64,000 nucleotides of DNA from Candidatus Omnitrophota bacterium (GTDB lineage Bacteria > Omnitrophota > Gorgyraeia > Tantalellales > Tantalellaceae), in the NCBI GenBank assembly GCA_016783605.1, contig JADHWG010000001.1, forward strand, positions 4,712 through 68,711, written 5' to 3'. How positions within the stretch are numbered: position 1 is the stretch's first letter; every line of letters starts with the position of its first letter. Below are positions 3,549 to 64,000 of this stretch, one piece after another. The notes beneath the pieces are model-generated. The model saw only the letters and a program-made list of their open reading frames with translations. It was not told the origin of the DNA and did not search any database. The position numbers were made by a program, and so were the translations under genes.

Positions 3549-3714
3549 TAGTTGTAAACAAAATACATCAAAATGGGCATATTTGAGGGATAAAGGGCAC
3601 GGCATGCCGTGCCCCTACGAAGTTGCGGGCGGAGTATAAATATTTTTGGTTGGGCATTGTTGAGATTGCTTCGTCCCCGGGGGACGCCTGCGGGGACGAA
3701 GCAATTTTTGGATG

Positions 3715-6700
3715 TTAGAGCGACGAATCGATCTGATCTATACAATCTTTCCAGTCGCTTCGATCTATTCTTTCCATTGGTATGCCGAGGAGAAGTGTTT
3801 CCAACACCAAACGCATTAAAGTAACCGCGGCGCCTATTTGGAGCATCCTTCTTTGCCCGGTTGGAATTTCATTATAGGAAAGCATCAGATATAAGTCTTT
3901 TATGTCAATATCCTGACTGTGCGTTACGGCTCGCATCAGCTTTTTTATGTCCTGAGCGAGAGTTTGTTCACCATTTTCCGCTTTTTGGACATCTTTAGGA
4001 GTGAGACATCCTTGGAGAATACCTATTCTTAAAGCAGTAGACGCGTATAGCCACCCTTTGCCGCTTAATCCTTCTATGTCGGGAAGAGACAAAATTCTTG
4101 TTTGTTTAAGTATGTCCTCCAATTTCTCAGGCATATCAAAATCGCTTTCAGGCTGTATAGCTGTAATATTTGATTCGGTCGCGAATAAAACGGGTATCCT
4201 TACGTCTTCAGGACTTTTCGAACTTAGACTGCTACTGAGCAAATTTACCACACTTTGCTGATCTAACCCTGCTTCACTATTGTATTCTTTAATCTTTACC
4301 GCTCCTTTACCGAAAAGTTTATCCAGATTCCGCTGAGTTTTTTCTTTGGAACCATCACCTGAAAGGCTATCAGAAAACATCTCTTTAGGAACGATAAGAT
4401 CGATCTTGTTTTTCTTTACGAGAGAAGCGTGTTTTTCTAGCATTTCGTATACGTTGTAAACAGCCTGTTCTCCTTCTGTATTAGCATAACTCGCCTCAAC
4501 AATAACTGTCTCACTATGCAAAGTCTTTTTAATCCAGTAGTCGTTAATTTCACGTACCGTGGGTGGTTTTCGGAAATGAAATTTTCTGCCGTCCGGACTC
4601 TCAATTATCAGTCTTCCTTCAATAGAATCCCCGTCTTCCCGAATATCCATGTTTACATCTATCACCTCTCCCGGTCCGAATACAACAATTTTTTCATCTT
4701 TATCCACAAGAAGATTATTGTTATTGATTTCGATCTCTACCGCGCCGCTCTTTACAACAAGCCTATGAGGTCTTTGCACTCCCCCATGTGTTATCCTCTT
4801 TGGCGGACGTTTCTTTTCACCATTAATCGTGATCACGTCCACTTCCTCGGATTTCAGACCATAATCTTTAATAACACCTCTTTCTTCGCTTGCAACAATA
4901 TTTGTTCCTCCTATTTTTTTGCCTTGTTTAAACGGTTTTGCAATTGGAATTTTTCTTTTCAGGGCGGGAACAAATATGTCCAGGATTTCCGCTTCTTGTT
5001 CTAACGTCTCAACTGATACGCTCTTCGCGGAAGCCGGGATCACAAGCAAGAATCCTCCTTTCGCTAAAGACACAATCTTTGCGGTTTTTATATCTCCCCT
5101 CGCGTCTGTAACAGAAATAGTCGCTGATCCTGTTTTAACAGCAAGGATGTGAAGTCCGTGTGTTGATTCCTCCGGTTCTTCCCCTAAAGATAAAACGTTT
5201 TTTCCGTCTGATTGTGCCATAATAATTCTGTCCATTCTGTAAGCACTCTTTACCAGAATGTTGAGTTCCACGCTATCCTTTTCTTGCAATTCTTTTACCC
5301 CCATTTCAGGAAACACAATACCGTTTTCCCGAATAGCGTCTTTGCCTAAAAGTTCTTCGGGAAAATATTTTAGCGCGCTCTTTAACTTCGACAGTGTGAT
5401 CGTCTTCGGCGCATCCGGTGATTCTAAGTTACATGCATCAATATCACCTTCGAGATCCAAATAAAACGGAGCCCCGTTTTTGATAGTTTCGGTTATCGTT
5501 GCGTCTATCCCTTCAGGTTCTTCTACATCTTCATAATATCCTTTTTGCCTGGCAAGCGGCGCGGCTTTTTGCGGTTCAGATTCATTCGCGGTCATTTCGG
5601 CGTGTACTGCCATTACTTCGTTGATCGGGGTAATAGCGGGCATATGTTTCCTGTCCGATATAATTTGAATTGTTTTCGCGAGATCATCATCAAGCTTTGT
5701 TTTTAAATTACTAACATTTGTCGAGCGGTATTCATACTCGGGAATGATCGCCTGTATCCCGGCTTTTTCCATATTTGCAATCTGCCGAGGAGCCGACACT
5801 GCTGTCGGGTCAATTACAGCATGTGTCACACCGGCTGATGCCAAAAATTCCGCCGGAATAATACCGGTATTGGATCCTGTTCCGCGTGTCGCGATATTAT
5901 CTTCGCGACCGTCGATCGTTATTATTTTTTTCTTTTCATCTGTCGTCGCGTCCCGGAATAACTCGCTCACGTCTTCACCGCGAAGTTCGCGAAGAGCCGC
6001 GTCAATGTGAAGCCGGGAAATACAATGAAAAATGTTCACTTTTTCAAGATCCACGCCGGCGTCTTCATAACCTTGTATCCACGGCATCCAGGGACCTTTT
6101 TCGTTTGCCTTAAAGTTGTACAAAAGATCGAGCCCGTCTTTTACACCCGCGGCAGTTTCGGCTAATTTAACCGCGTTCGCGAGGGTGTAAATATAGCGCG
6201 CGACAAACGCGCCGTTATAACCGGCGACCTCTACCATGCCTTCAATGATATCAGCCTTTGTTCCGCCGCCGTAAGAGATTTTCAATCTTTTTCGGTATTC
6301 TTCGCGCAGGTCTTCGATCATATTGTTCCACCAATCGCCTTTCCAAGCATCTTTATCTTTAAAAACATAGCCAAATAGTGTCGCAATATTTTCCGCCTGA
6401 GTTATCTCCATTTCCGAAGGCACTCCCAATTCCAAAAACACAGGTATCTGCTTTTCCAGACGGAATTTCGCGACCTTCTCATGAAGAGATGCTCCACGAA
6501 TCGCTTTAACAGGTTCATACGGATTTATAAACTGGTACAGAACGGTTTCTATCGGCACATTTTCGAACAGTATTTTTATCTGATAGTTTATCTCATAGAC
6601 CGTTGAAATTTCTTCTATGATGCGGCGTTTTACTTCATCTAAGTTATTCAGTATTACCTCGATTGTTTTGGCTATTGTACCTTGTTGGTCTATTATTTTT

Positions 6701-8607: not shown

Positions 8608-9009
8608 TATTATTTTCCCCCTTCGGTTAAAAACACATAATACGCGTGAGATGATCCTGTTGAACTATCACAAAATCTTCCGCCATTATCTTTCTTTTTC
8701 TCGGAATAATGGGTTTGAAAAAATCTTTTTTAAACACCTTAAAATTGTCTTTCAGAAATCCTGTTTGCCTGAATCGGCTTGATCGCTTCGTACTAAGAAT
8801 GGGTTTTTTTGAGGTATACCAAAGCATGCGTTACTTCACTGTTGAGTTTATTCACATCACTACTAAAGCAAAAAACAACTACCTTCTTTCTAAAGTACCA
8901 AAAAGGGCAAAACAAATCAACCCTTTATTTCTAACTTTTTTTCGATAAACATTGAAGTTATAAGGGCACGGCATGCCGTGCCCCTACGAAGTGGTTGGCG
9001 ATATCCCCC

Positions 9010-9545: not shown

Positions 9546-9664
9546 ATGTCTACCCCCCTCTTTAATAACGTTAAAAAACTTTCTCTCCCGGAACCACCTC
9601 GTAGGTGGAACCGGTTGTTCCACCTACGAGGTGGTTCCGGTAAAGGGCACGGCATGCCGTGCCC

Positions 9665-10420
9665 CTACGGGGTTGTATCGGGGTTTGGTTCTTCCCCGTC
9701 TTGTTTTGAGTGAACCATTGGAACAAATCTGACCGGCAGGAGTGTTTTTTTATTCACGCCCTCGGGTGTTTTTTCGATCAGACATAATTCTTGATGAAAA
9801 CTTCCGACGGGGACTATCATTTTGCCGCCGATTTTCAGCTGGTCTATCAATTCTTCCGGCACCTCCGGCGGCGCGGCGGTTATAACGATCGCGTCAAAAG
9901 GGGCGTATTCTTCCCAGCCTTTATATCCATCGCCGTATTTTACATGAACGTTGTCATATCCGAGTTTTTTTAGTCTTTCGCGAGCGGAATCGGCAAGCGG
10001 TTTCAATATTTCGACGCTATAGACATCTTTTACGATTTTTCCCAACACCGCCGCCTGATACCCGCATCCGGTCCCGATCTCAAGAACCCGCGTTTGGTCT
10101 TTCGGCTGAATTTGTTCTGTCATATAGGCGACAATGTACGGTTGGGAAATAGTCTGGCCATATCCGATAGGCAGCGGACAATCGCTGTACGCGGAGTTGA
10201 TCAAGTTTTCCGGCACGAACAAATGTCGTTTGACGCTCGACATCGCGTCCAAAACAGTTTTATCGGTAATGCCTCTGGCGACTATCTGTTCTTCCAGCAT
10301 TTTTTCCCTCATCTCATCAAGCGCTCCATTCTCGGCAATGGCAATAAATTCGCCCGCTGTAAAAGATAAAAGCAGACACATTATGCTAAGCAAAAAATTC
10401 ATCCTGATTTTTCGCTTCAT
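9665..10420 (-). CDS. pcm: protein-L-isoaspartate O-methyltransferase with N-terminal signal peptide
   Basis: SAM-binding motif VLEIGTGCGYQAAVL and the PCMT family C-terminal region. I moved the start to MKRKIR because the track start (MHLRGAIG) is a translation of a palindromic repeat. Confidence 0.8.
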   Translation of the reverse strand: MKRKIRMNFLLSIMCLLLSFTAGEFIAIAENGALDEMREKMLEEQIVARGITDKTVLDAMSSVKRHLFVPENLINSAYSDCPLPIGYGQTISQPYIVAYMTEQIQPKDQTRVLEIGTGCGYQAAVLGKIVKDVYSVEILKPLADSARERLKKLGYDNVHVKYGDGYKGWEEYAPFDAIVITAAPPEVPEELIDQLKIGGKMIVPVGSFHQELCLIEKTPEGVNKKTLLPVRFVPMVHSKQDGEEPNPDTTP

Positions 10421-10549
10421 TTTTGCCTGCTCTTTCGTTTCGCCAAAACTTAACAGCCTTTCATCCCAACTCTTCACCACCCCGATTGCACCTCGTAGGT
10501 GCAATCGGTTGCACCTACGAGGTGCAATCGGGGTGGTGCGAAGGTTTTG

Positions 10550-13064: not shown

Positions 13065-13179
13065 ATTTACCGCTAAACCCTTCTTGACCGCCCGTATTTT
13101 GAACTGTATTATATCTTACAACAAACCACAATTACAAGCCTTGTTTTACCTCCCCCAAACACCCCACCCCCTTCGACAA

Positions 13180-13270
13180 CCTCGTAGGGGCACGGCATGC
13201 CGTGCCCTTTACCACACAAATCACAAATCCCATGAGGGCACGGCATGCCGTTCCCCTACGAAGTTGGTGG
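13180..13270. repeat. BIME-like composite (family-B half-site, REP-A, 28-bp linker, REP-A) in the divergent promoter region
   Basis: caacctcgtaggggcacggcatgccgtgccctttaccacacaaatcacaaatcccatgagggcacggcatgccgttcccctacg. Confidence 0.8.
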
Positions 13271-17533: not shown

Positions 17534-17546
17534 ACCCCAATTGCAC

Positions 17547-18860
17547 CTACGAGGTGCAATTGGGGTATGAGTTGGAATTGTGGTTTGGGGTGATTTTATC
17601 AGCGCCGAAATATGGTTTTAATGCTTCGGGGATTGTAATTGAACCATCTTTTGTTTGATAAATTTCAAGGAGTGCCACTACAAGCCTTGGAAGCGCCACA
17701 CCGGACGCATTTAGTGTGTGTACATATTTTGGTTTTTGTTTTTTGTTTTTCGATTGATATTTTATATTCGCGCGGCGCGCCTGAAAATCTGAAAAAACTG
17801 AACAGCTTGATACTTCCAGCCATCTTTTGCTTCCCGGCGCCCAAAGTTCTATATCATAACATTTGTGCGCGGCAAAACTTATGTCGCTTGTGCAAAGTTC
17901 GAGTACGCGATATGGAAGATCCATTTTTTTTAGGATGTCTTCCGCGTTCCGGAGCAAAGTTTCCAGTTCTTTCATTGATTCATCGGGATGAGTGAACTTG
18001 ACCATTTCAACTTTATCGAATTGGTGTACGCGAATGAGTCCCCGCGTATCTTTACCGTAGGAACCGGCTTCTCTTCTAAAACACGCGGTTGACGCGGTAT
18101 AGTAGATGGGAAGCGATTCCTCTTTTATCACCTCATCCGCGTGAAGATTGGTAAGAGGGACTTCCGCCGTCGGGATAAGGAAAAGATCCTCTTCTTGGAT
18201 CTTATACATGTCTTCGGCAAGCTTTGGAAGTTGTCCGGTTCCCCTCATGCTCTTACTATTGGCTAACACTGGGGGACAAATCTCTTTATATCCGTGCTCT
18301 TTCACGTGCACGTCTATCATAAAGTTTATAAGCGCTCTCTCAAGTTTGGCTCCGGCGCCGACAAAAAGCGGGAATCCGGATCCTGTTATCTTTGCCGCGC
18401 GTTCAAAATCCAAGATCCCGTTTATCTTTCCAAGTTCAATGTGATCGCGAGGAGTAAACGATATTTTGGGGATCTTTCCCCATTCTCTTACCTTTTTATT
18501 GTCTTTTTCACTTTTCCCGACGGGCACGCTTTCATGCGGCACATTCGGGATCATATCAACAATCGTTTTAAATTTCTTTTCCACCTCGCCGAGCGTGTTA
18601 TCCAATTTGCTTATTTTTTCAGAAATTTTGTTAACTTTTTCTTTGGCGCCTTCGGCGTCTTTTTTTTGTTTTATCAATTCACCGATCTTTTTTGAGGCTT
18701 CGTTTTTTTTGCGTTTTAAGGCCTCGACTTCTTGAAGCAAATCTCTTCTGATTTGGTCAACTTTTAAAAATTTATCCACCAGTTCAGGTTTATCCGATCT
18801 ATTCTTAAGCGCTTTTTTTACAATATCGGAGTTTTCTCTTATGAATTTTGCCTCAAGCAT
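17547..18860 (-). CDS. serS: seryl-tRNA synthetase
   Basis: N-terminal coiled-coil arm plus class II aaRS core (437 aa). The last ~13 codons and the stop are supplied by a family-B palindromic repeat. Confidence 0.9.
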   Translation of the reverse strand: MLEAKFIRENSDIVKKALKNRSDKPELVDKFLKVDQIRRDLLQEVEALKRKKNEASKKIGELIKQKKDAEGAKEKVNKISEKISKLDNTLGEVEKKFKTIVDMIPNVPHESVPVGKSEKDNKKVREWGKIPKISFTPRDHIELGKINGILDFERAAKITGSGFPLFVGAGAKLERALINFMIDVHVKEHGYKEICPPVLANSKSMRGTGQLPKLAEDMYKIQEEDLFLIPTAEVPLTNLHADEVIKEESLPIYYTASTACFRREAGSYGKDTRGLIRVHQFDKVEMVKFTHPDESMKELETLLRNAEDILKKMDLPYRVLELCTSDISFAAHKCYDIELWAPGSKRWLEVSSCSVFSDFQARRANIKYQSKNKKQKPKYVHTLNASGVALPRLVVALLEIYQTKDGSITIPEALKPYFGADKITPNHNSNSYPNCTS

Positions 18861-24179: not shown

Positions 24180-24280
24180 TTTGGTTTCTCCTGATTGTTT
24201 TTGTCTAAATGTTTAAAGAAAGTATATATCTTTCATGTGAGTAAATGATGAAGAAAATGTGAAGATTTGATGAAGAAGGG

Positions 24281-24407
24281 GCTGTCGCAAAATACCCCCA
24301 AAATGTCATCCTCGCAAACGCGGGGATCTATAAGTCTAAGAATTACAATATGTTACAGATCCCCGCGTCCGCGAGGATGACAGAAAAAGGTGTTTTGCGA
24401 CAGTCCC
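24281..24407. mobile_element. MITE-like inverted-repeat element (relative of MITE-1); TIR GGGRCTGTCGCAAAAYACC
   Basis: ~125-bp imperfect hairpin with ~19-bp TIRs and possible AAGAA flanking duplication. It shares tcatcct / gatct(c)tata motifs with MITE-1. Confidence 0.5.
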
Positions 24408-29693: not shown

Positions 29694-29960
29694 CTGGCCC
29701 CTCGACTCGCTCTTCGAGCTCGCTCGGGGTCAAATATAAAAAGTCCCGATTAAGTGTTTTTTAACCGGGACTTCTTTTTCGCGTTACGTTTTTCTGGTCC
29801 CTCAACTCGCTAAAATGCTCCTTCTCGTCGCATTTCTTCACGCTCGTTCGGGATCAATTTTCGCGTTCGCGAAAATTGGTCCCTCAACTCGCTAAAATGC
29901 TCCTTCTCGTCGCATTTCTTCACGCTCGTTCGGGATCAATTTTCGCGTTCGCGAAAATTG
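29694..29960. repeat. tandem repeat: one degenerate plus two perfect 82-bp units abutting the tRNA-Lys 3' end
   Basis: The unit gtccctcaactcgctaaaatgctccttctcgtcgcatttcttcacgctcgttcgggatcaattttcgcgttcgcgaaaattg occupies 29797..29878 and 29879..29960. The last unit overlaps the tRNA CCA. On the tRNA strand each unit ends …GGGAC followed by CA. Confidence 0.8.
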
Positions 29961-31361: not shown

Positions 31362-31508
31362 TTCAACCAGTTTTCACTACTCCACCAACTAACACCAATT
31401 CACGGGCGGACGCAAGGCCCGCCCCTACACTTTACCATCCCCGATTCCACCTACGAGGTGGAATCGGGGGGACTAACGATTTTAAAGGTTTTTCTTTTGG
31501 ACTTTAAA

Positions 31509-33107: not shown

Positions 33108-33283
33108 GTCCTTCTCCTTCTTACTTCGGTCTGTCTCGCATTTTACGCGATTAAAAATTTTGATACACTCAAAATCATCGCGCGCAAAAAGACGTAACCG
33201 TTTTAATGTTAAAATCGCATTATAACTGAACGATTATTATATAAAAAATCAGCATAAATTCAAGCAAAATATGCTTTTTTGTC

Positions 33284-33413
33284 GTAGGGGCACGGCATGC
33301 CGTGCCATTTACCGCACCAATCATCGATCCAATGAGGGCACGGCATGCCGTGCCATTTACCGCACCAATCATCGATCCAATGAGGGCACGGCATGCCGTG
33401 CCCCTACGAGGTT
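33284..33413. repeat. BIME-like array: three REP-A palindromes (GGGCACGGCATGCCGTGCC) separated by an identical 28-bp linker
   Basis: Cores at ~33288, 33336 and 33384; linker atttaccgcaccaatcatcgatccaatga. Its 'spacers' are identical, so it is not a CRISPR. Confidence 0.8.
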
Positions 33414-33433
33414 GTTTTAGAACGTGTTAAAAT

Positions 33434-35251: not shown

Positions 35252-35454
35252 ATGTATTCACCTTACGTTATAATACTCGGGAAAATCCTTAAACCCAGAT
35301 ATTGCATTAGAACATGGCGAAGAATGCAATATCTGGGTTAAACATAACTGGTAAATCTTAGCACACATGCCCGCTATTGTCGAGAATTTCAGCATCCCCC
35401 ACCCAACACCCAATGCTAACTTTTATTATCTTAACCCACCTTGCTGGCAACTTC

Positions 35455-35535
35455 GTAGGGGCACGGCATGCCGTGCCCTTTATCACACAAATCACCAATC
35501 CCATGAGGGCACGGCATGCCGTGCCCCTACGAGGT
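35455..35535. repeat. BIME-like composite: REP-A, linker tttatcacacaaatcaccaatcccatga, REP-A, fused to a family-B half-site
   Basis: The same architecture recurs at 13180..13270. Confidence 0.8.
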
Positions 35536-35649
35536 GGAATTGATGTTATGAGACTCACCGTGTAAATACTTGCTCATGACACTCAATAATGATATAATTC
35601 CTCGGTAACGTTTTAGTGACTTTAATAGCAATCTTACACGGAGATTTTA

Positions 35650-41418: not shown

Positions 41419-41487
41419 CTTTTGTTCGGTATCTTCTTGTTATACAATTACACTAATTAATCGTACATTTTAATGTTTTTCCATTTT

Positions 41488-41553
41488 ATTCGGGCACATG
41501 CAATGTGCCCCTACAATTCGGGCAAATCTATTCGGGCACATGCAATGTGCCCC
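41488..41553. repeat. family-C palindromes, two copies (TTCGGGCACATGCAATGTGCCC)
   Basis: Also present at 48496..48557 (two copies) and 49309..49330. Confidence 0.75.
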
Positions 41554-47652: not shown

Positions 47653-47716
47653 ATTTTACCACCATTTTTGATTGTTAAATAATAACACACATACCCACCA
47701 CATTCAAGAGTTAATT

Positions 47717-47855
47717 GAGGGGTCGGGGAGTTTCCCGACTCCTCATCCTGAAGCCCAAAGGGCTGAAGGATCTCTATAGATTCTTTTGGAAGATTAACAA
47801 GAGATCCTTCGCTTTGCTCAGGATGAGTGGTCGGAGAAAAACTCCCCGACCCCTC
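47717..47855. mobile_element. MITE-1, copy 1 (139 bp; TIR GAGGGGTCGGGGAG; TSD AGTTAATT)
   Basis: ~60-bp imperfect inverted arms; identical 8-bp direct repeats flank the element at 47709..47716 and 47856..47863; inserted next to a REP-A copy. Confidence 0.8.
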
Positions 47856-47885
47856 AGTTAATTGAGGGCACGGCATGCCGTGCCC

Positions 47886-48434
47886 CTACGAAATCGGCAT
47901 ATTCGTTCTATCTTCACGAATCCACATTTGGGCGGCTTGGGAGGCATTTTGTATCGCTTCTTTTATTTGAGCTCGTTCTCCGCGCGGGAAAGACGCCAAT
48001 ACATACGAAGAGGTGTCTCCGGTAACCGCCGCGCCTATCCCAACCCTAAGTCTGGCGAAATCAGGTCCGATTCTATCAATTATTGATTGAAGCCCGTTAT
48101 GTCCGCCCGCGCTCCCCTTTTCACGAAACCTTATGCTTCCAAGCGGAAGATTAAAATCGTCGCTTATCACCAATACGTCTTTCGCCTTATCTTCGGCTTT
48201 AGACGCGAGAACCGCGTTTACCGCTTCTCCGGACAAATTCATGTATGTTGACGGCCTAAACAGCATCACTTCCCGTCCTTTTACACGTCCAATCCCATAT
48301 GTCCCGTTAAAACCTTTTTTCCCAAGCCGAATTCTATGCGTTTCGGAAAGAGTTTTGATCACCATAAATCCGACATTGTGTCTTGTGTTTCTATACCGCA
48401 ATCCCGGATTTCCTAATCCAACAATGATTTTCAT
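47886..48434 (-). CDS. pth: peptidyl-tRNA hydrolase
   Basis: N-terminus MKIIVGLGNPG…RHN. I moved the start to the internal Met. Confidence 0.85.
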   Translation of the reverse strand: MKIIVGLGNPGLRYRNTRHNVGFMVIKTLSETHRIRLGKKGFNGTYGIGRVKGREVMLFRPSTYMNLSGEAVNAVLASKAEDKAKDVLVISDDFNLPLGSIRFREKGSAGGHNGLQSIIDRIGPDFARLRVGIGAAVTGDTSSYVLASFPRGERAQIKEAIQNASQAAQMWIREDRTNMPIS

Positions 48435-48566
48435 TATGCAAACTCCAACTTTCGCAGGCTGTGCCCTATCCACCTACGAGGCGGAATAGCTTCTTGAGGC
48501 ACATGCAATGTGCCCGTTCGATTCGGGCAAATTTATTCGGGCACATTGCATGTGCCCGTTCGAATC

Positions 48567-49283
48567 TTATTTGTCCTTTTTCTCGTGAGTTGCTTCCTGA
48601 CCGGCTTCGGCTTCGGCTCCGGCTTCGCCTTCTTCTTCCTTCTTACCCTTCTTAATAACTTCCGGTTCTTCCGTTTCTTCTTCGGAAAGTTCTTCTTTTT
48701 CCTCTTCCTCTTCCACTTTCGGCAGATGTACGGAAGCTATAACCTTTTCAGGGTCGTCCAAAACATGAACGTCCTGCGGGAATTCCACATCTTTAATGTG
48801 AAGAGCGTCGCCGATATGCAAGTTCTCGACATTCACCGTGATCTCGTCCGGAATGGCCGTAGGCATACATTCCATCTCAATTTCCCAAACTACCTGCGCC
48901 AACACGCCTTCTTCCTCTTTCACTCCGACTGCTTCGCCTTTGGCGACAACCGGAACTTTAACTTTGAGTTTTTCCTTAAGAGAAATTTCGTGAAAATCAA
49001 CGTGTACCACTTCGTCACTGACCGGATCAAGCTGAATTTCCTGAACAATAACCGTTTTCTTCAGATGTTTTTCCTCACCGGTTATATCCATGCTGATGAT
49101 CGCGTTGCCGCCGGCTTCCGTATGAAGAGCTCTCCACAGATCTTTTTTACCGATCTGAACATTTGCTCCCAGCTTGCCTCCTCTGTATACTACGGCGGGA
49201 ATTTCTCCGATCTTTCTTAGATGCTTACATCCGCTTTTCCCGAAATCTTTTCGAACTACCGCTTTTAGTGTTATCTTTTCCAT
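48567..49283 (-). CDS. rplY: 50S ribosomal protein L25 / general stress protein Ctc, with acidic-Lys C-terminal extension
   Basis: L25 beta-barrel N-domain, Ctc-type C-domain, and a low-complexity tail. Confidence 0.8.
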   Translation of the reverse strand: MEKITLKAVVRKDFGKSGCKHLRKIGEIPAVVYRGGKLGANVQIGKKDLWRALHTEAGGNAIISMDITGEEKHLKKTVIVQEIQLDPVSDEVVHVDFHEISLKEKLKVKVPVVAKGEAVGVKEEEGVLAQVVWEIEMECMPTAIPDEITVNVENLHIGDALHIKDVEFPQDVHVLDDPEKVIASVHLPKVEEEEEKEELSEEETEEPEVIKKGKKEEEGEAGAEAEAGQEATHEKKDK

Positions 49284-49330
49284 TTACTTCACCTCTCCTT
49301 GATGTTTATTCGGGCACATGCAATGTGCCC

Positions 49331-50269
49331 CTACGATTCGAACAATGCACTTACCGATTCTTCATTATGAATGCGCCGTATCGCTTCCGAAAATAACGGG
49401 GCAACAGATAGTTGCACTATTTTGTCCAACTGTTTTGTTTTTTCCACCCTGATCGTATCCGTTACGACCAACTTTTTAATTTCAGATTTTTTTATTCTTT
49501 CTATCGCCGGTCCGCACAACACCGCGTGCGTGATCGCCGCGTAAATGTCTTTCGCGCCGTGCTTTTTAAGCGCACGCGCCGCTTCCGCCAAGCTTCCCGC
49601 GGTTGCCACGATATCGTCCACCATAATAACGTTTTGTCCTTTGACGTCGCCCATAATATGCATAACTTCGGCGTCAGTGTCATTTATGCGTCTTTTGTCA
49701 ACTATGGCCAGATCCGCGTTAAATCGTTTCGCGTAAGCTCTTGCCATTTTAATTCCGCCAACATCTGGAGAGACGATCACAACATCTTTCAATTTTTCCC
49801 GTTTAAAATATTCTTCAAATATGCTTATGGCATATAAATGATCCAACGGAATATCAAAAAATCCTTGAAGCTGTCCCGCGTGCAGATCCACTGTAAGAAC
49901 TCTCGTCGCTCCGGCACGCGTAAGCAAATTCGCGACAAGTTTCGCCGTAATGGGAACTCTCGGTTGATCTTTTCTGTCCTGCCTCGCGTATCCATAATAG
50001 GGCAAAACCGCGGTGATCCTGCGGGCGGACGCCCTTTTTACCGCGTCGATCATTATCAAAAGCTCCATAAGATTCTCATTCGCGGGATGTGAAGTGGACT
50101 GTACAAGAAACACATCTTTCCCTCTGACGTTTTGCTCTATCTTTACACGCGTTTCACCGTCACAAAACTTATCCACCTTTATCTTTCCCTGCCCGACTCC
50201 CAATTCTTCGCAAATATTTTTTGCCAACCTCGCGCACGTATTCCCAGCGAAAACCATTAATTTATCCAT
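49331..50269 (-). CDS. prs: ribose-phosphate pyrophosphokinase
   Basis: PRPP-binding loop DDIVATAGS and full-length 312 aa. Confidence 0.9.
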   Translation of the reverse strand: MDKLMVFAGNTCARLAKNICEELGVGQGKIKVDKFCDGETRVKIEQNVRGKDVFLVQSTSHPANENLMELLIMIDAVKRASARRITAVLPYYGYARQDRKDQPRVPITAKLVANLLTRAGATRVLTVDLHAGQLQGFFDIPLDHLYAISIFEEYFKREKLKDVVIVSPDVGGIKMARAYAKRFNADLAIVDKRRINDTDAEVMHIMGDVKGQNVIMVDDIVATAGSLAEAARALKKHGAKDIYAAITHAVLCGPAIERIKKSEIKKLVVTDTIRVEKTKQLDKIVQLSVAPLFSEAIRRIHNEESVSALFES

Positions 50270-50335
50270 AATGCAATCACCCCTTCGTTAGTATATCGTT
50301 GCCATAACCCTCTTGACAACCTCGTAGGTTGATCA

Positions 50336-50440
50336 ACGTTATACGTTACACGTTTCACGTAGCAGGTTACATGTTTCCCGCCGGAGGCGGGTCCGCCTTT
50401 GGCGGAAAGCGTGTAACGTGCCACGTGCAACATGTAGCAT
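50336..50440. repeat. family-H palindrome (gttacacg…tttcccgccggaggcgggtccgcc…cgtgtaac)
   Basis: Second copy at 55797..55900 with a shared 24-bp GC-rich core. Confidence 0.65.
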
Positions 50441-50449
50441 AAATTAATT

Positions 50450-50588
50450 GAGGGGTCGGGGAGTTTCCCGACTCCTCATCCTGAAGCCCAAAGGGCTGAA
50501 GGATCTCTATAGGTTCTTTTGGAAAATTAACAAGAGATCCTTCGCTTTGCTCAGGATGAGTGGTCGGAGAAAAACTCCCCGACCCCTC
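50450..50588. mobile_element. MITE-1, copy 2 (139 bp; TSD AATTAATT)
   Basis: Same TIRs as copy 1; 8-bp direct repeats at 50442..50449 and 50589..50596. Confidence 0.8.
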
Positions 50589-50590
50589 AA

Positions 50591-51856
50591 TTAATTCAAA
50601 TCCGCCCCTACTTGTTTGCGCACCCGCGCGGGAACTCCCATTACCGTTTCTCCGGCGGCGACATCTTTATTTTTCGTAACAACACTTCCCGCGCCTATTT
50701 TCGCGCCTTTCCCAATTTTTACCGGCGCAACAAAAATTGCGCCGACTCCTACAAACACATCATCTTCTATTATCGTGTTAAACTTTTTCTCACCATCATA
50801 ATTCGCGGTGATCACTCCCGCGCCGACATTCACTCGCTTGCCGACTACGGCGTCCCCCAGATACGTGTGATGTTTCACCCGCGTTTTGGTTCCTATTTTT
50901 GTCCGGCAAACTTCCACAAAATTTCCTATTTCAACTTCTTCCGCAAGCCGCGAACCGCCGCGAAGCCTGGCAAAGGGCCCGATCCGGCAGGCCGCCTTAA
51001 TTTCAACATCGGCTTCAATAACCGTATTCGGAAAAATTATGGTTTCAGCTTCGATCTTTGCCGATTCATCTATGTATGTCGACTCCGGAGCGATTATGGT
51101 CACTCCTTTTTTCATTAACTTCTCGAGAGTTTTTCTGTTCATAATAGTATTCGCGCGCGCCAGATCTTCTCTTGAATTTATCCCTACCGCCTCTTCCGCG
51201 CCGCAACCGACCGCAACCGCTTTTTTCCCATTCTTCACAAAGAGATCAATAACATCCGTCAGATAAAACTCTTTTTTCTTCTCGTTGATCTTAACGCGTT
51301 TTATAAATTCTTCAAGGCCATCTCGAAGAAAACAATAAGTTCCGACATTTATCTCTTTAATTTCTTTTTGAGCTTGTGTCGCGTCTTTTTCCTCACAAAT
51401 CGCCGAGACATTTCCATCCGCGCCGCGAATGATTCGCCCGTATTCCCCCGCGTCGGTTAAAACCGAAGTTAATACCGTACACCCCGCCTTCTCTGAAAAA
51501 TGTGTATCCATCAAATTTCGATAAGTCGCACTTGTTATGAGAGGCGCATCAGCGCACGTTACCAATACGTCTTTTTCTTTCGTAAGACCGTCCAGCGCCT
51601 GTTTCAGGGCGTCTGCCGATCCCAAAAGTTTTTTTTGTTCAACAAACTTTAGTTTTTCACCTGTCAAAGAACTTTTGATCTGCTCCGCGTTATATCCTAC
51701 AACAACCGTAATGTCCGTTATACCGGAGGATCTAAGATTTTCTATAACTCTTCCCAATATCGTCTTCGATCCAACTTTGTGCAATACTTTGGGAAGACCG
51801 GATTTCATCCTGGTCCCTTTACCCGCCGCCAAAACAACCGCCGTAATGTTATTCAT
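50591..51856 (-). CDS. glmU: bifunctional GlcNAc-1-P uridyltransferase / GlcN-1-P acetyltransferase (GlmU-like)
   Basis: N-terminal nucleotidyltransferase motif LAAGKGTRM and a C-terminal left-handed beta-helix with hexapeptide repeats. Confidence 0.75.
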   Translation of the reverse strand: MNNITAVVLAAGKGTRMKSGLPKVLHKVGSKTILGRVIENLRSSGITDITVVVGYNAEQIKSSLTGEKLKFVEQKKLLGSADALKQALDGLTKEKDVLVTCADAPLITSATYRNLMDTHFSEKAGCTVLTSVLTDAGEYGRIIRGADGNVSAICEEKDATQAQKEIKEINVGTYCFLRDGLEEFIKRVKINEKKKEFYLTDVIDLFVKNGKKAVAVGCGAEEAVGINSREDLARANTIMNRKTLEKLMKKGVTIIAPESTYIDESAKIEAETIIFPNTVIEADVEIKAACRIGPFARLRGGSRLAEEVEIGNFVEVCRTKIGTKTRVKHHTYLGDAVVGKRVNVGAGVITANYDGEKKFNTIIEDDVFVGVGAIFVAPVKIGKGAKIGAGSVVTKNKDVAAGETVMGVPARVRKQVGADLN

Positions 51857-51953
51857 CTTTCTGTTTCCTTAAGTTCCCACCGATAATTGGCTACCCGATG
51901 CTGTCCATAGCCTAATTTCAAACATCAATTTTGTCAACTATTTGAGGGGTCGG

Positions 51954-52064
51954 GGAGTTTTTCGACCCCTCATCCTGAAGCCCAAAGGGCTGAAGGATCT
52001 CTATAGATCCTTCGCTTCGCCCAAGATGACACCTTTGCAAGAGGGGAAAACTCCCCGACCCCTC
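51954..52064. mobile_element. MITE-1, copy 3 (111 bp internal-deletion variant; TSD AACTATTT)
   Basis: Same TIRs; 8-bp direct repeats at 51946..51953 and 52065..52072. Confidence 0.75.
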
Positions 52065-52237
52065 AACTATTTATCAAAATGCCCATCCGTCGCTACAGAA
52101 GCGATTTTATAAAATTGGAGTGAAATTTTATTTGACAAATAGTGTTCTTTCATGTACACTTTACGTAGGATTTGATTCAAGGGACTGGGGATTCCCGGTC
52201 GGCAAAAAGCTCTGACGTAAGTCGGAGCTTTTTGTTT

Positions 52238-52978
52238 TTATGGAAATATTTTTAATCCCTGTATCCTCCCATCACCTCTGTAAAATTTTGTCTTTATAAT
52301 ATCGTACGCAGGATTCGGCTTATTATGACTATGTACGTACCGGGCGACCGGATAGGCCACCAAATCCGCTAATTGCGTACCTACCACATTCATCATCTTG
52401 GGAATAAATTTTAGTTTAAAATCTATCTTTTTAAACCGTTCCGCGGGGATATAATTGGTGCCTTGGCTGGCAATTCTTAGAAAACTTAACATTAAATTAT
52501 TATCTTCTTTTTTGCCACGGCTTTCCGCGATGAGTTGAACCCCGTCTTGTTTTTTCTCTTCAAGCAAAGGCAAGAGCCTCTCCATGCAAAATATCATTGC
52601 CAAATCATACGGATTCTCCGCCAATATACCATATTTTTCCTTATGATCCTGCTTTTTTATTACAGAAACTATCAATTGATAGTTTGAATCCGACATTATT
52701 CGATTTAATTCTCTATAAAACTCCTCGCGTTTAACAGGATTGGTAAGAATGCCAAAATCTCGCTGAGCTTTGCGTATATCCCGCGAATGAATGATAACTG
52801 CCTCGTGCCCAAAAAAATCCATTTTGAGTTGATTGATCGCTGGAGAAATTTTGTGGTTGTATATCGTTTTCTCACAAACAAACATCGCGAGAGCAAAGAA
52901 AGGAAAGTCCTTGTCTACAAGCTCAAGTGAATGATCGCCGCTTTCATCCAGGTATACTATTACCGACATTTGACACAT
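52238..52978 (-). CDS. DUF3800-family protein
   Basis: N-terminal IVYLDESGD signature of DUF3800. Confidence 0.6.
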   Translation of the reverse strand: MCQMSVIVYLDESGDHSLELVDKDFPFFALAMFVCEKTIYNHKISPAINQLKMDFFGHEAVIIHSRDIRKAQRDFGILTNPVKREEFYRELNRIMSDSNYQLIVSVIKKQDHKEKYGILAENPYDLAMIFCMERLLPLLEEKKQDGVQLIAESRGKKEDNNLMLSFLRIASQGTNYIPAERFKKIDFKLKFIPKMMNVVGTQLADLVAYPVARYVHSHNKPNPAYDIIKTKFYRGDGRIQGLKIFP

Positions 52979-53124
52979 CCTTTTTCTTCAAGCCCTTTTA
53001 CAATCTTAGTTACATGAGCATAATTTGTTTTCTCTCCTCGAGCCCCTCGCGTCCATTTTTCTGCAATAGTCCTTTTACCCATATTTCAATTGCTCTGCGA
53101 TTTTCAGCCTTTGGCTGAAAATCG

Positions 53125-53198
53125 ATGGCTGGCGGGCAAGGACTCGAACCTTGACAAGCAGCTCCAAAAGCTGCGGTGCTACCATTACACTACCCGCC
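53125..53198 (-). tRNA. tRNA-Gln (anticodon UUG), U1:A72, CCA encoded
   Basis: Acceptor stem UGGCGGG/CCCGCCA, anticodon arm GCAGC-UUUUGGA-GCUGC, T-arm CAAGGTTCGAGTCCTTG, and a downstream terminator hairpin gattttcagcctttggctgaaaatc. Confidence 0.8.
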
Positions 53199-53204
53199 AT
53201 TTGA

Positions 53205-53812: not shown

Positions 53813-54748
53813 TCAGTACGTACTTACCACACATATCCGCCAATTTTCTTCTTTCGGAAATGCGCCAAGAAGTCTCTTCTCCGCCTGCCGCACAACCTCC
53901 TCGTCAAAAATCCCAAAAACAGTAGAACCGCTTCCGGATAAAAGAGTACCAAGCGCGCCGGCACCTTCTAATTCACGAAACACCTTTTTTAAAACGGGAA
54001 ATTCTCGTAATACTATTGGCTGTAAATCGTTATGAAGATTTTTTGCCAAACTCCCGCTGTTTTTATCCTCCAAAAAAGCGCTGAACATTCTATCAAGGGC
54101 TATATCCTTTGTCAAGCCAAAAGGGGAAAAGCGCCCGTATACGTCTTTTGTTAAGATTTTAAACGGCGGTATTACAAGCACATGCCAAATTTTGCGTTCA
54201 AACTCGAGTTTCGTAATAATGTCTCCGCGACCCTTTCCGCAGGCGAAGTTCGCGTCATTCAAAAAAAAAGGAACATCCGCGCCCAACTTGCCGGCAATGT
54301 CCAAAAGTGAGGTTTTGTTAAGCTTCTGCCCCGTTATTTTGTTCATCGCGCGCAATATCGCCGCGGCATCACTGGAACCTCCACCTAGTCCGCCGCCGGA
54401 AGGAATGTTCTTTTTAAGCTTAATAATAAAATTGTCGTTAACGGCGGCCTTTTCCTTAAAAAGCCTGACCGTGCGGCCCATTAAACTGTCGGAACAAACC
54501 GGAATGGACGGATCGTCACATTCGATCCGGATGCCGGTATCAGTTTCATCACCCCCGATTCCACCTCGTAGGTGGAACTCGTTCCACCTACGAGGTGGAA
54601 TCGGGGTACGATCATCAATTACATCAATGTTGATCTCGTCACAGAGTGAAATTTTTTCGAAGATCGTCTCGATGGAATGATATCCATCATTCCTCTTATT
54701 GAGAACTCTTAAGAATAGGTTCACTTTGGCAGGCGCGGTAATAAACAT
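53813..54748 (-). CDS. ispE: 4-diphosphocytidyl-2-C-methyl-D-erythritol kinase with an in-frame 18-codon palindromic-repeat insertion
   Basis: GHMP kinase motifs (APAKVNLFL; PSGGGLGGGSSDAAA). The segment …PIPPRRWNEFHLRGGIGG… is the translation of a family-B double hairpin (54548..54602). I moved the start to MFITAPAKV. Confidence 0.75.
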   Translation of the reverse strand: MFITAPAKVNLFLRVLNKRNDGYHSIETIFEKISLCDEINIDVIDDRTPIPPRRWNEFHLRGGIGGDETDTGIRIECDDPSIPVCSDSLMGRTVRLFKEKAAVNDNFIIKLKKNIPSGGGLGGGSSDAAAILRAMNKITGQKLNKTSLLDIAGKLGADVPFFLNDANFACGKGRGDIITKLEFERKIWHVLVIPPFKILTKDVYGRFSPFGLTKDIALDRMFSAFLEDKNSGSLAKNLHNDLQPIVLREFPVLKKVFRELEGAGALGTLLSGSGSTVFGIFDEEVVRQAEKRLLGAFPKEENWRICVVSTY

Positions 54749-54831
54749 GATGTATGTCCTTATATAAACGAATGATCTATGGAGATCCTTCGCTTCGCTC
54801 AGGATGAGGGGTCGAGAAATACCCCGCCCCC

Positions 54832-55779
54832 TCATTTACGTTTTAACAGATCTTCCATTTCCCTTACGATATCATCCACCCGCAGCCCGAAATGTTCATA
54901 CAATTCGTCCGGAGCGCCGCTTACTCCAAATTTTCCCTTTATGCCCATAAGCTTCATAGGACAAGGCTTTTCCTGAACGATCACTTCCGCGACAGCGCTT
55001 CCCAGCCCGCCATAAACGGTATGTTCTTCCACTGTCAAGATCGCCCCGGTTTCTTCCGCCGCGTTTATTATTGTTTCCTTATCGATCGGACACGGTGTGT
55101 GCAAATTTATTACACGGATATTTATTCCTTTAGATTTCAAAACTTCCGCCGCTTCGATCGCGCTTGTAACCAAATGCCCGCACGCGACTATCGTAGCATC
55201 GTTTCCCTCGGTCACGACATCCGCTTTACCTATCTTAAATTCCGATGTTCGTTTTAATATCGGAACTTTGACGCGTCCCAATCTGATATATACGGGCCCG
55301 GGTATATCCGCCGCCTGGAGAGTCGCTAAATTCGCCTCTTCAGAATCTGCCGGAACGACAACCGTCATATTCGGAATGATCCTCATAAGCGCGATCTCCT
55401 CCAACGCTTGGTGGGTCGCCCCGTCTTCTCCGACTGAAATTCCTCCGTGACTTCCGATAATATTCACATTCAAATTCATGTATGCCACCGACACTCTGAC
55501 CTGATCCCACGCGCGTCCGGAAGCAAACGCTCCGAACGTACACGCGAACGGTATCTTTCCCGAAAGCGCCAGTCCCGCCGCCGCGCATATCATATCCTGT
55601 TCGGCTACACCATGACTGATAAAACGCTCCGGATATTTTTCTTTAAACCAATTGGCTCTCACCGATTCCGTTAGATCCGCGGATAAAACAACTACATCTT
55701 TATTGGTCCGCCCCAAGTCAAGTAAAGCTTTCCCGAATCCGTCCCTGGTTGCCTCGCGCTCCGCACCTTTTTCTTTCAT
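54832..55779 (-). CDS. transketolase, C-terminal (pyrimidine-binding) subunit
   Basis: Split-type transketolase C-half of 315 aa. Confidence 0.85.
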   Translation of the reverse strand: MKEKGAEREATRDGFGKALLDLGRTNKDVVVLSADLTESVRANWFKEKYPERFISHGVAEQDMICAAAGLALSGKIPFACTFGAFASGRAWDQVRVSVAYMNLNVNIIGSHGGISVGEDGATHQALEEIALMRIIPNMTVVVPADSEEANLATLQAADIPGPVYIRLGRVKVPILKRTSEFKIGKADVVTEGNDATIVACGHLVTSAIEAAEVLKSKGINIRVINLHTPCPIDKETIINAAEETGAILTVEEHTVYGGLGSAVAEVIVQEKPCPMKLMGIKGKFGVSGAPDELYEHFGLRVDDIVREMEDLLKRK

Positions 55780-55919
55780 TCATAACTCCCAATTTTATGT
55801 TACACGCTGCAGGTTTCAGGTTTCAGGTTTTCCCGCCGGAGGCGGGTCCGCCTCCGGCGGGAAACCTGAAACCTGAACCGTGTAACATGCAACGTATTCA
55901 CCAGCCAACTATCAACCGG

Positions 55920-58635: not shown

Positions 58636-58724
58636 CCGCCGGCGATCAAAATTGACGACGCGCCTTTCGCCGGCAACCTCGTAGGGGCACGGCGTGCCGT
58701 GCCCCTACGTTGATTATCCGATCC

Positions 58725-58905
58725 GTTTTTTCTCTTTGTCAATTAATCGGACAAGGCAGGCCTTGTCCCTACGAACAATATAAAACATACCCAACAAATC
58801 GTAGGGGCCGGGCCTGCCCGGCCCTTTTATCCCCATCATCATTGATAACCTTTATGTGTTGGTGCCATTATAAACGGTTACCTGAATTGTGACAATATAC
58901 ACCCT
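58725..58905. mobile_element. MITE-2, 5'-truncated copy, flanked by a 35-bp duplication of the transketolase-N 3' end
   Basis: Right TIR ggttacctgaattgtgacaat is present and the left TIR is absent. Direct repeats ttgattatcc(g/a)atccgttttttctctt(t/c)gtcaa lie at ~58711..58745 and ~58906..58940. Confidence 0.65.
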
Positions 58906-61289: not shown

Positions 61290-61487
61290 TTAAGTTATAC
61301 CTTTCTCTTCTTGTGCCGGTCTCTTCTCATTCTTTTTTTCCGTTTATGTCTTTTAACTTTTTTTATTTTTCTTTTCTTCCCACAGGGCATGCCGTTTCCA
61401 CCTCCTTAAATCGGCTGTAACATAGTAGGGTACAGACATGCCTGTACCTACCCTATTAACGGACAAGCACAGGGGCCTGTCCCTTGT

Positions 61488-61752
61488 ATATTGTCACAAT
61501 TCAGGTAACAAATCGATAGTGACCGGGGGGCCACCCGACCATTTTATCCCCTCTTCAATTAATCGGACAAGGCAGGCCTTGTCCCTACGAATAATATAAA
61601 GCATATCACAACAAATCGTACGAATAATATAAAACATGCCACAACAAATCGTAGGGGCCGGGCCTGCCCGGCCCTTTTATCCCCATCATTATTGATAACC
61701 CTTATATGTTGGTGTCATTATAAACGGTTACCTGAATTGTGACAATGTACAC
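61488..61752. mobile_element. MITE-2, complete copy (~265 bp; TIR ATTGTCACAATTCAGGTAAC)
   Basis: Left TIR tattgtcacaattcaggtaac and right TIR gttacctgaattgtgacaatgtaca. Internal conserved blocks aattaatcggacaaggcaggccttgtccctacga and gtaggggccgggcctgcccggccc. Confidence 0.75.
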
Positions 61753-63926: not shown

Positions 63927-63956
63927 TCACGGGCGGGGAAACGTGCGCCACTTGTA

Positions 63957-64000
63957 CATTGTCATAATTCAGGTAACAAATCGATAGTGACCGGGACCAC
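63957..64000. mobile_element. MITE-2, left end of a further copy running off the window
   Basis: acattgtcataattcaggtaacaaatcgatagtgaccggg. Confidence 0.6.

Follow-up and report, generated by a model that had tools for sequence, protein, structure and literature searches.

Miniature inverted-repeat elements of an Omnitrophota genome share their ends with an unannotated insertion sequence family and with GIY-YIG nuclease cassettes

Miniature inverted-repeat transposable elements (MITEs) are common. Bacterial MITEs are mobilised in trans by the transposase of an insertion sequence (IS), like Correia/NEMIS in Neisseria, RUP in Streptococcus pneumoniae or Nezha in cyanobacteria. Mobile insertion cassettes (MICs) are a further kind, e.g., MIC231 of Bacillus cereus, which is moved by the IS231 transposase. 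Here, we analyzed a stretch of 64,000 nucleotides from Candidatus Omnitrophota bacterium (assembly GCA_016783605.1, contig JADHWG010000001.1, positions 4,712 to 68,711), called the window in the following and numbered from its first letter. It contains three copies of a small palindromic element, which an earlier note had recognized in the sequence. The elements are short, lack a transposase open reading frame (ORF), are bounded by terminal inverted repeats (TIRs) and carry copy-specific target-site duplications (TSDs) of fixed length, which is the structure of MITEs. The evidence described below makes it probable that they were moved in trans by a DDE transposase and that their body stems from the 3' end of an element carrying a GIY-YIG nuclease gene.

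The 17-bp TIR, GAGGGGTCGGGGAGTTT, occurs without mismatch at all six ends of the three copies. When up to 3 mismatches are allowed, it matches the window 7 times, compared with 0.13 matches expected by chance, and none of 100 shuffles reached this number. The claim of three TIR-bounded copies with perfect but differing 8-bp TSDs was borne out for 3/3 copies. Since the flanks beyond the 8-mers are unrelated among the three copies, the 8-mers are target sequence and not part of the element. The coordinates proposed before were right for copies 1 and 2, and the start of copy 3, given as 51954, was a typing error for 51944. Copies 1 and 2 are identical at 137 of 139 positions, with 2 differences. 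For copy 3 an internal deletion had been proposed. Its centre is indeed shorter than that of copies 1 and 2, but its right sub-terminal region is different and a similar right arm is found in the metagenome loci L136 and L137, so that it represents the sub-lineage of these loci and not a simple deletion of copy 1. Single-strand folding gave -49.3, -47.0 and -37.9 kcal/mol for copies 1, 2 and 3 (z = -10.9, -9.7 and -7.9 against shuffles), in agreement with the long imperfect hairpin described in the earlier note. All copies are intergenic, lie in one orientation and hold only spurious ORFs. A nhmmer search with a profile built from the three copies detected no further copy in the window apart from one right-end fragment, and tblastn with the cognate transposase found no transposase similarity in the 64 kb, as had been stated before. 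The coordinates of all these features are listed in Table 1.

Table 1. Coordinates of the MITE copies, their duplications and their parts in the window
Feature	Coordinates	Strand	Remarks
Left TSD, copy 1	47709..47716	.	AGTTAATT; identical to 47856-47863; fits target consensus ANNTANNT
MITE copy 1, 139 bp	47717..47855	+	between pth and rpsF; both 17-bp TIRs perfect
Left terminal hairpin, copy 1	47717..47744	+	TIR GAGGGGTCGGGGAGTTT, then CCCGACTCCTC complementing the first ~10 bases
Left core stem-loop, copy 1	47745..47774	+	ATCCT...AGGAT, small hairpin AGCCCAAAGGGCT in loop
Central loop, copy 1	47775-47800		
Right core and right terminal hairpin, copy 1	47801..47855	+	mirrors left parts; homologous to 3' end of GIY-YIG element
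Right TSD, copy 1	47856..47863	.	AGTTAATT
Left TSD, copy 2	50442..50449	.	AATTAATT
MITE copy 2, 139 bp	50450..50588	+	between glmU and prs
Right TSD, copy 2	50589..50596	.	AATTAATT; holds last codon and TAA stop of glmU
Left TSD, copy 3	51936..51943	.	AACTATTT
MITE copy 3, 121 bp	51944..52064	+	88 bp upstream of glmU start codon
Right TSD, copy 3	52065..52072	.	AACTATTT
Solo right-end remnant (core and terminal hairpin)	54771..54833	+	nhmmer E ~1e-9; TIR with 3 mismatches

To see where else these ends occur, representative genomes, one per species, were scanned for the exact 18-mer consisting of the TIR and the flanking T. It was present in at least 114 stretches. Among the matches listed, the hosts are mostly metagenome-assembled genomes (MAGs) of Desulfobacterales, but Omnitrophota, Planctomycetota, Sumerlaeota, Nitrospinaceae, Patescibacteria, Elusimicrobia and a few archaeal bins were also found. 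The inward-facing TIR pairs in the same matches delimit elements that measure 78-440 bp and have a large variety of unrelated interiors. Perfect 8-bp TSDs flank 35 of the 62 unique TIR pairs listed, compared with 1.1% for flanks taken from different elements. In these 35 duplications, position 1 is an A in 32, position 4 a T in 35, position 5 an A in 34 and position 8 a T in 34. Therefore, the target is the palindromic A-N-N-T-A-N-N-T, and the TSDs of an independent metagenome scan agree with it. The duplication comprises the full 8 bp because duplications starting with G are repeated over all 8 positions. A 6-bp TSD combined with a 1-bp longer TIR, which was considered as well, is ruled out by the same G-starting duplications. 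The earlier note had named two outcomes that would speak against insertion, namely that copies elsewhere lack duplications or that the 8-mers belong to the element; instead, 8-bp duplications are present elsewhere and differ from site to site.

An IS of 1142-1154 bp with the same TIR was identified at five loci in other genomes (L025, L028, L048, L155 and L156); three of the five, L025, L155 and L156, are flanked by perfect 8-bp TSDs. This is the full-length IS for which a search had been recommended, and together with the site-specific TSDs elsewhere it supports the earlier view that the MITE is mobilised by a transposase. The IS carries two overlapping ORFs, orfA of about 118 aa and orfB of about 217 aa. 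About 60 nt before the orfA stop the sequence TTAAAAAAAATC is conserved, and from there the +1 frame is open into orfB, so that a transposase of 333-349 aa is predicted for the fusion of orfA and orfB. Two homologues with a single ORF (P0116 and P0066, 329 and 333 aa) read straight through the predicted junction. Because their loci contain A7 where the two-ORF copies contain A8, the A-run is regarded as the slippage site. In the alignment of the transposases, D127, D217/D221 and Y267-x2-R270-x4-E275-x6-K282 are conserved. Transposases of the IS4/IS5 type are characterized by a Y(2)R(3)E(6)K signature.

The family of this transposase is large: at least 935 protein clusters belong to it, and its members come from many phyla of uncultivated anaerobes. 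Whenever a listed member has a name in its source, this name is "hypothetical protein". Almost all members are without a Pfam domain, and a few carry precomputed matches to PF13751 or PF13612. Many members are located on contigs of 1.1-1.5 kb. The parents suggested in the earlier note (IS1595, ISL3 or IS256-like) did not hold up, since neither the two ORFs nor the fused protein matched the Pfam and NCBIfam models of these families. Instead, weak matches to DDE_Tnp_1-type, IS1182 and IS982 models were obtained; that to IS982 (NCBIfam NF033520) reached 15 bits against a cut-off of 130 in one of two proteins. These weak but consistent matches, all to models below their cut-off, suggest that the transposase belongs to the IS4/IS5-type superfamily. 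It is not filed under IS1182, IS982 or IS5 because all curated thresholds tested failed. No match was found in the PDB by profile search at E values up to 10, nor among plasmids by tblastn. Co-occurrence of the IS with the window organism in one community was not seen, as two transposase look-ups came from unrelated samples.

The IS and the MITE have only the terminal 17-19 nt or so in common. The MITE is no deletion derivative of the IS; the sequences that its arms match are 3' ends of elements with a GIY-YIG gene. The first of these, in an Omnitrophota MAG (L017), is a 423-bp element with the same ends, a perfect TSD and a GIY-YIG nuclease gene between two cores. A look-up of close homologues of its protein added four more independent elements of 417-496 bp (L142, L145, L148 and L151). 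The encoded nuclease has about 105 aa and no other gene is present. Perfect TSDs flank three of the five elements (L017, L142 with AAATAGAT and L148 with AATTAATT). These three elements have TIRs, a TSD and a passenger gene but no transposase, i.e., they are MICs by definition, and the window copies are not. Over about 60 nt, the 3' ends of the GIY-YIG elements can be aligned both with the right arm of the MITE and with the remnant (54771-54833). Alignment scores assign the left arm to the same 3' end type, in inverted orientation. A derivation of the left arm from the 5' end of the GIY-YIG element was rejected, as both arms score as the 3' end type. A related GIY-YIG gene (PF01541, 57.8 bits) at locus L129 has the same inner repeats without TIR hairpins; because of this cassette, gene cassette and transposon ends are regarded as separable modules. 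The left core was also searched as an exact 31-mer and found in 13 metagenome contigs, in one of them (L129) upstream of the TIR-less GIY-YIG gene. Members of the MITE subfamily in these 13 contigs measure 100-179 bp, and additional perfect TSDs (AATTATTT, AAATAAGT and AGTTTAAT) occur at their flanks. The same end architecture was observed in bins of Omnitrophota, Planctomycetota, Brocadiaceae, Sumerlaeota and Elusimicrobia. Literature searches yielded no report of this TIR, of Omnitrophica MITEs or of bacterial GIY-YIG elements bounded by TIRs.

These observations can be combined in the following model. A DDE transposase supplied in trans would bind the 17-bp ends and cut the target with an 8-bp stagger at ANNTANNT, and repair of the gaps would leave the 8-bp duplication. 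The IS would produce its transposase of about 333 aa by joining the overlapping ORFs at A8; in related copies with A7 there is a single ORF. The GIY-YIG elements would be mobile insertion cassettes which use the same ends, and the MITE would be a gene-less palindromic derivative whose arms arose when some 60 nt at the 3' end of a GIY-YIG element were duplicated in inverted orientation. The two hairpins present at each MITE end, the terminal one (the TIR and its own complement) and a small stem-loop, would stem from this 3' end. The acting enzyme would accordingly be the DDE protein, a copy of which is presumably present in the genome of the window organism or was so formerly, and the GIY-YIG gene would be a passenger or a secondary selfish invader.

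Several observations weigh against this model. The IS was absent from the window, which together with a few contigs is what was covered of this organism, and from the few Omnitrophota loci examined, and the genome of the window organism is not among the matches listed from the 18-mer scan. No Pfam or NCBIfam model tested reached its curated family threshold with the transposase: DDE_Tnp_1_6 gave 21-25 bits against a cut-off of 25.1, DDE_Tnp_1_3 matched weakly, and IS1182 (NCBIfam NF033551) gave 26-28 bits against 270, restricted to the C-terminal 60-70 residues. The AlphaFold model of P0116, based on an alignment of 36 sequences, had a predicted local distance difference test score of 51.5 and was too poor to use. 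The same strain is represented in several ENA and Logan assemblies, and the insertions are present in all of them. A clean empty site was not recovered from syntenic contigs of relatives with 87%, 83% and 73% GlmU identity, whose glmU-flanking spacers lack the MITEs but have diverged too far to reveal a single-copy target. The exact 18-mer used for the genome scan includes the flanking T and biases the apparent conservation of the TIR and in part that of target positions 1 and 8, but not that of positions 4 and 5. Finally, the assignments to archaeal MAGs may be binning errors.

It is possible, though on the unlikely side, that the order of events was different and that the GIY-YIG gene is a homing endonuclease which invades gene-less MITEs. 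The MITE centre would then be its homing site and the window MITEs would be the uninvaded form. The position of the gene fits, as it sits exactly at the central loop of the MITE, between GAAGGATCTC and GAGATCCTTC. In L142, L145, L148 and L151 the right core is part of the ORF, whose TGA stop coincides exactly with the junction of right core and terminal hairpin; in three of these four elements it is the right core itself that encodes the C-terminal RDPSLRSG. Such a reading frame is expected for an insertion into a pre-existing repeat. The same type of cassette also occurs outside TIR elements, at L129. However, no sample yielded a pair of elements, with and without the gene, that were otherwise near-identical, and these data are compatible with insertion as well as deletion of the gene. 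Moreover, homing of the gene is compatible with movement of the MITEs by a DDE enzyme.

A different question is whether the hairpins are kept for the host, as stabilisers of mRNA 3' ends or as terminators, as was proposed for REP elements. Pairing was analyzed in 25 ends from different loci, which were chosen and aligned by eye, with the arms extracted by position. In this set, 93.6% of the cells are paired and 9 of 15 pairs have changed on both sides (31 cells). None of 500 shuffles reached these values, and slid controls were paired at 30-56%. Both local hairpins are thus kept by compensatory changes. Within the TIR, positions 4-6 are variable (GGG, CCC, CAG, CCG, GGA, GTA) and the inner arm compensates for it; in L017 and L134 the two ends of one element differ, but each hairpin is self-complementary. 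A host function would also fit with the intergenic position and single orientation of all copies. In addition, one relative (L127, 73% GlmU identity) has a solo terminal hairpin upstream of rpsF, at the position of the end of copy 1 and with the same flank as in the window (AAATAACTCTTGA vs AATTAACTCTTGA), which is explained either by an old insertion common to both or by preference for this site. On the other hand, complementary arms can arise without selection, by copying or by intrastrand repair of palindromes, and the alignment of the ends was curated by eye. A scan for promoters and terminators called nothing at the copies, with counts not above those of shuffles. Rfam gave only a tRNA and chance-level hairpin matches between 47000 and 55500, and no Rfam family matched the copies at gathering score, the only hit being a model of a plant MITE-derived miRNA hairpin with 48 bits against 170. 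Among the close relatives examined, those with 83% and 73% GlmU identity have no TIR-like sequence in the two glmU-flanking spacers, which are too diverged to align, and only L127 has the solo end upstream of rpsF. Maintenance of the hairpins for a host function therefore appears improbable.

The GIY-YIG nuclease could itself be the enzyme responsible for mobility or an indispensable part of this enzyme, with the MITEs as its non-autonomous derivatives. The GIY-YIG elements look like compact autonomous ISs, with one ORF between the ends and perfect TSDs in 3/5 cases, and many close homologues of the nuclease lie on contigs of 500-900 bp, which suggests multiple copies. The match of about 60 nt between the arms of the MITE and the GIY-YIG element resembles the classical relation between MITE and parent, and the few Omnitrophota loci examined did not contain a DDE IS. 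This is opposed by the canonical DDE IS, which agrees with these elements in its 17-bp ends, its 8-bp TSD and its target, by the gene at L129, which is not tied to these ends, and by the interiors of most TIR elements among the matches listed, which are unrelated to GIY-YIG. Homing by GIY-YIG enzymes leaves no TSD. To our knowledge, these nucleases cleave DNA but do not perform strand transfer. We therefore consider such a role of the nuclease highly improbable. It is likewise very improbable that the elements of 417-496 bp are an autonomous or semi-autonomous kind of transposon in which the nuclease of about 105 aa takes part in mobility, the hairpins are recognised and the MITEs are offspring. 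That the repeats are not mobile at all, being local duplications or REP/BIME repeats (repetitive extragenic palindromic/bacterial interspersed mosaic elements) spread by an HUH enzyme (RAYT) with the 8-mers as part of the repeat, is practically excluded: REP-like palindromes after GTAG abound in the window, but this layout is absent from the elements, the 8-mers differ between the copies and are duplicated at 35 of 62 sites elsewhere among the matches listed, the same ends are found on a DDE IS, and the TSDs in other genomes and metagenome contigs refute both variants.

The genes around the copies are all located on the minus strand (in this order: dnaB, rplI, rpsR, ssb, rpsF, pth, rplY, prs, glmU, DUF3800, spoVG, ispE and tkt), and the nearest named homologues of the window GlmU all come from Candidatus Omnitrophota. 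The earlier note had suggested that recombination between the copies could rearrange the region locally. There is no sign of this, as the gene order is kept in the relatives with 83% and 73% GlmU identity. The locus of copy 1 recurs in independent assemblies (L115 and L135), and short contigs of the same strain end inside the MITEs. One contig of this strain (L117, positions 1-33, ERZ24794666) diverges from the window at 51873 onwards, 17 bp upstream of the glmU start, which may be a strain variant of the copy 3 spacer or an assembly chimera. At 52238-53199, between spoVG and glmU, the window has a gene with a DUF3800 match (Pfam 47.6 bits) as well as one for a tRNA (53129-53199, minus strand). 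The same spacer is without a gene in three relatives (L123-L125) and holds an ORF of the 23S_rRNA_IVP family in L121 and L122. It is a spot of variable insertion.

The degenerate right half of the element, which had been placed at about 54775..54838, is real and lies at 54771-54833. Together with the flanking A, its last two bases (TC) provide the TGA with which the gene for the C-terminal subunit of transketolase ends on the minus strand (54832-54834). The ispE ORF of 340 aa (53813-54835, minus strand) begins inside the remnant (MRGRGISRPLILSEAKDL...), while the homologues in relatives have 286 aa and start at MFITAPAKVNLF. The N-terminal 54 aa are, judged by these homologues, a spurious extension read through the remnant, and the public gene calls for the window strain carry this false extension as well (L115, 7022-8044). 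Stop codons coincide with borders of the element also in copy 2, where the TAA of glmU lies in the TSD (50591-50593), and in L017, where the stop of an ABC ATPase gene is likewise formed at the border (5105-5107). Since stops are restored at the element borders or in the TSD, insertion at AT-rich stop-codon sites leaves the ORFs intact.

In addition, the window contains other repeats. A palindromic element of 130 bp at 24278-24407 (-42.2 kcal/mol, z -13) had been described as a relative of the MITE with different TIRs. Its ends (GGGGCTGTCGCAAAATACC) do differ from the MITE TIR, but it belongs to a separate palindromic family which is related only loosely. It has an inner stem-loop (GTCATCCTCGC...GCGGGGATCT) of the same general type as the MITE, a possible 5-bp AAGAA as its sole flanking repeat, and similar sequences in L089 and L132. 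Another family resembles MITEs and has members of about 227-263 bp, whose inverted ends (TACATTGTCACAATTCAGGTAAC) span 23 bp. It is present at 1357-1583 and 61487-61749, with only the right end at 58877-58899 and a further copy at 63955-64000 which is cut by the end of the window. Short GC-rich palindromes after GTAG or before CTAC are dense in the window, e.g., CGTAGGGGCACGGCATGCCGTGCCC and CCTCGTAGGTGCAA...TTGCACCTACGAGG, and often form inverted pairs (3578-3627, 8947-8996, 9628-9677, 13177-13268, 33277-33416, 35448-35539, 47865-47885 and 58668-58717). Related families are located at 10475-10538, 17535-17565, 31439-31469 and 54549-54607 and at 41486-41552, 48491-48557 and 49306-49372. Their layout is that of REP/BIME elements, which are moved by RAYT-type enzymes, and one of them adjoins MITE copy 1. 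Lineage-specific versions of these palindromes occur in the same spacers of L123 and L127. At 29795-29958, a unit of 82 bp is present as a perfect tandem duplication. One assembly of the same strain (L116, 5926-6027) has about 100 extra bases compared with window positions 55810-55830, a palindromic repeat upstream of the transketolase gene, and a 68-nt inverted copy of the repeat upstream of this gene adjoins MITE copy 2 (arms 50341-50408 and 55830-55897). Other phyla (L021, a Desulfatirhabdium bin; L045, Elusimicrobia; L132) have stem-loops of the form GTCATYCY...RGRATCT in which changes within the stem compensate each other. These stem-loops stand either alone or inside other small elements, e.g., GTCATTCCGAACGCAGTGAGGAATCT, ATTGCGAGCGGAGCGAAGCAAT and GTCATTCCCGCGAAAGCGGGAATCT. 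They resemble repeats that give rise to many spurious short ORFs in metagenome annotations, and their link to GIY-YIG genes may be general.

Taken alone, the MITEs of the window are ordinary, and their relatives and likely helper IS are more useful. A large IS family whose members stay below all curated transposase thresholds is missed by genome annotation, and its repeats break assemblies. The element causes annotation errors in housekeeping genes, like the false extension of ispE, and it inserts at stop codons while restoring a stop. DDE IS, GIY-YIG cassettes and gene-less MITEs form a layered selfish set with shared ends and a palindromic 8-bp target, in which the terminal hairpins of the MITE ends are preserved by compensatory changes. 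Such a set offers a tractable system for the origin of MITEs from sequences other than their helper IS.

Like known bacterial MITEs, the window elements are small, without an ORF, intergenic and multi-copy, share their TIRs with an IS, have a TSD of fixed length and fold into a long hairpin. Unlike them, they share just 17-19 bp or so with the IS and have an interior from a GIY-YIG gene cassette; each end has its own covarying self-complementary hairpin, the target is the 8-bp ANNTANNT, and the TIR is found in hosts from many different phyla, all of them uncultivated anaerobes. The relatives of 417-496 bp are similar to MICs in being TIR-bounded, TSD-flanked and transposase-less with one passenger gene, but their passenger is a GIY-YIG nuclease of about 105 aa within its own inverted repeats, and trans-mobilisation is putative here. 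The IS transposase shows weak hidden Markov model similarity to IS1182, IS982 and IS5 in its catalytic C-terminal part, its Y-x2-R-x4-E-x6-K is close to the signature of IS4/IS5 transposases, and the two-ORF organisation with an A-run is known from several IS5 subgroups. In contrast to these families, its scores are far below every curated cut-off and almost no Pfam domains are recognised in the family. We know of no IS subgroup that combines an 8-bp TSD, a length of 1.15 kb and these ends, and the family is set apart here without a comparison with ISfinder. Like REP/BIME, the elements are abundant intergenic repeats which form hairpins; REP/BIME have a GTAG-palindrome layout and no target duplication, whereas the studied elements have TIRs and 8-bp TSDs. 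With free-standing GIY-YIG homing genes, the relatives of 417-496 bp have in common a small GIY-YIG ORF (PF01541 for the L129 protein) that behaves as selfish, multi-copy DNA, but here the gene is inside a TIR-bounded, TSD-flanked unit. MITEs and MICs as kinds are already known; the variant described here stands out by an IS family without annotation, by its GIY-YIG cargo and by terminal hairpins that covary.

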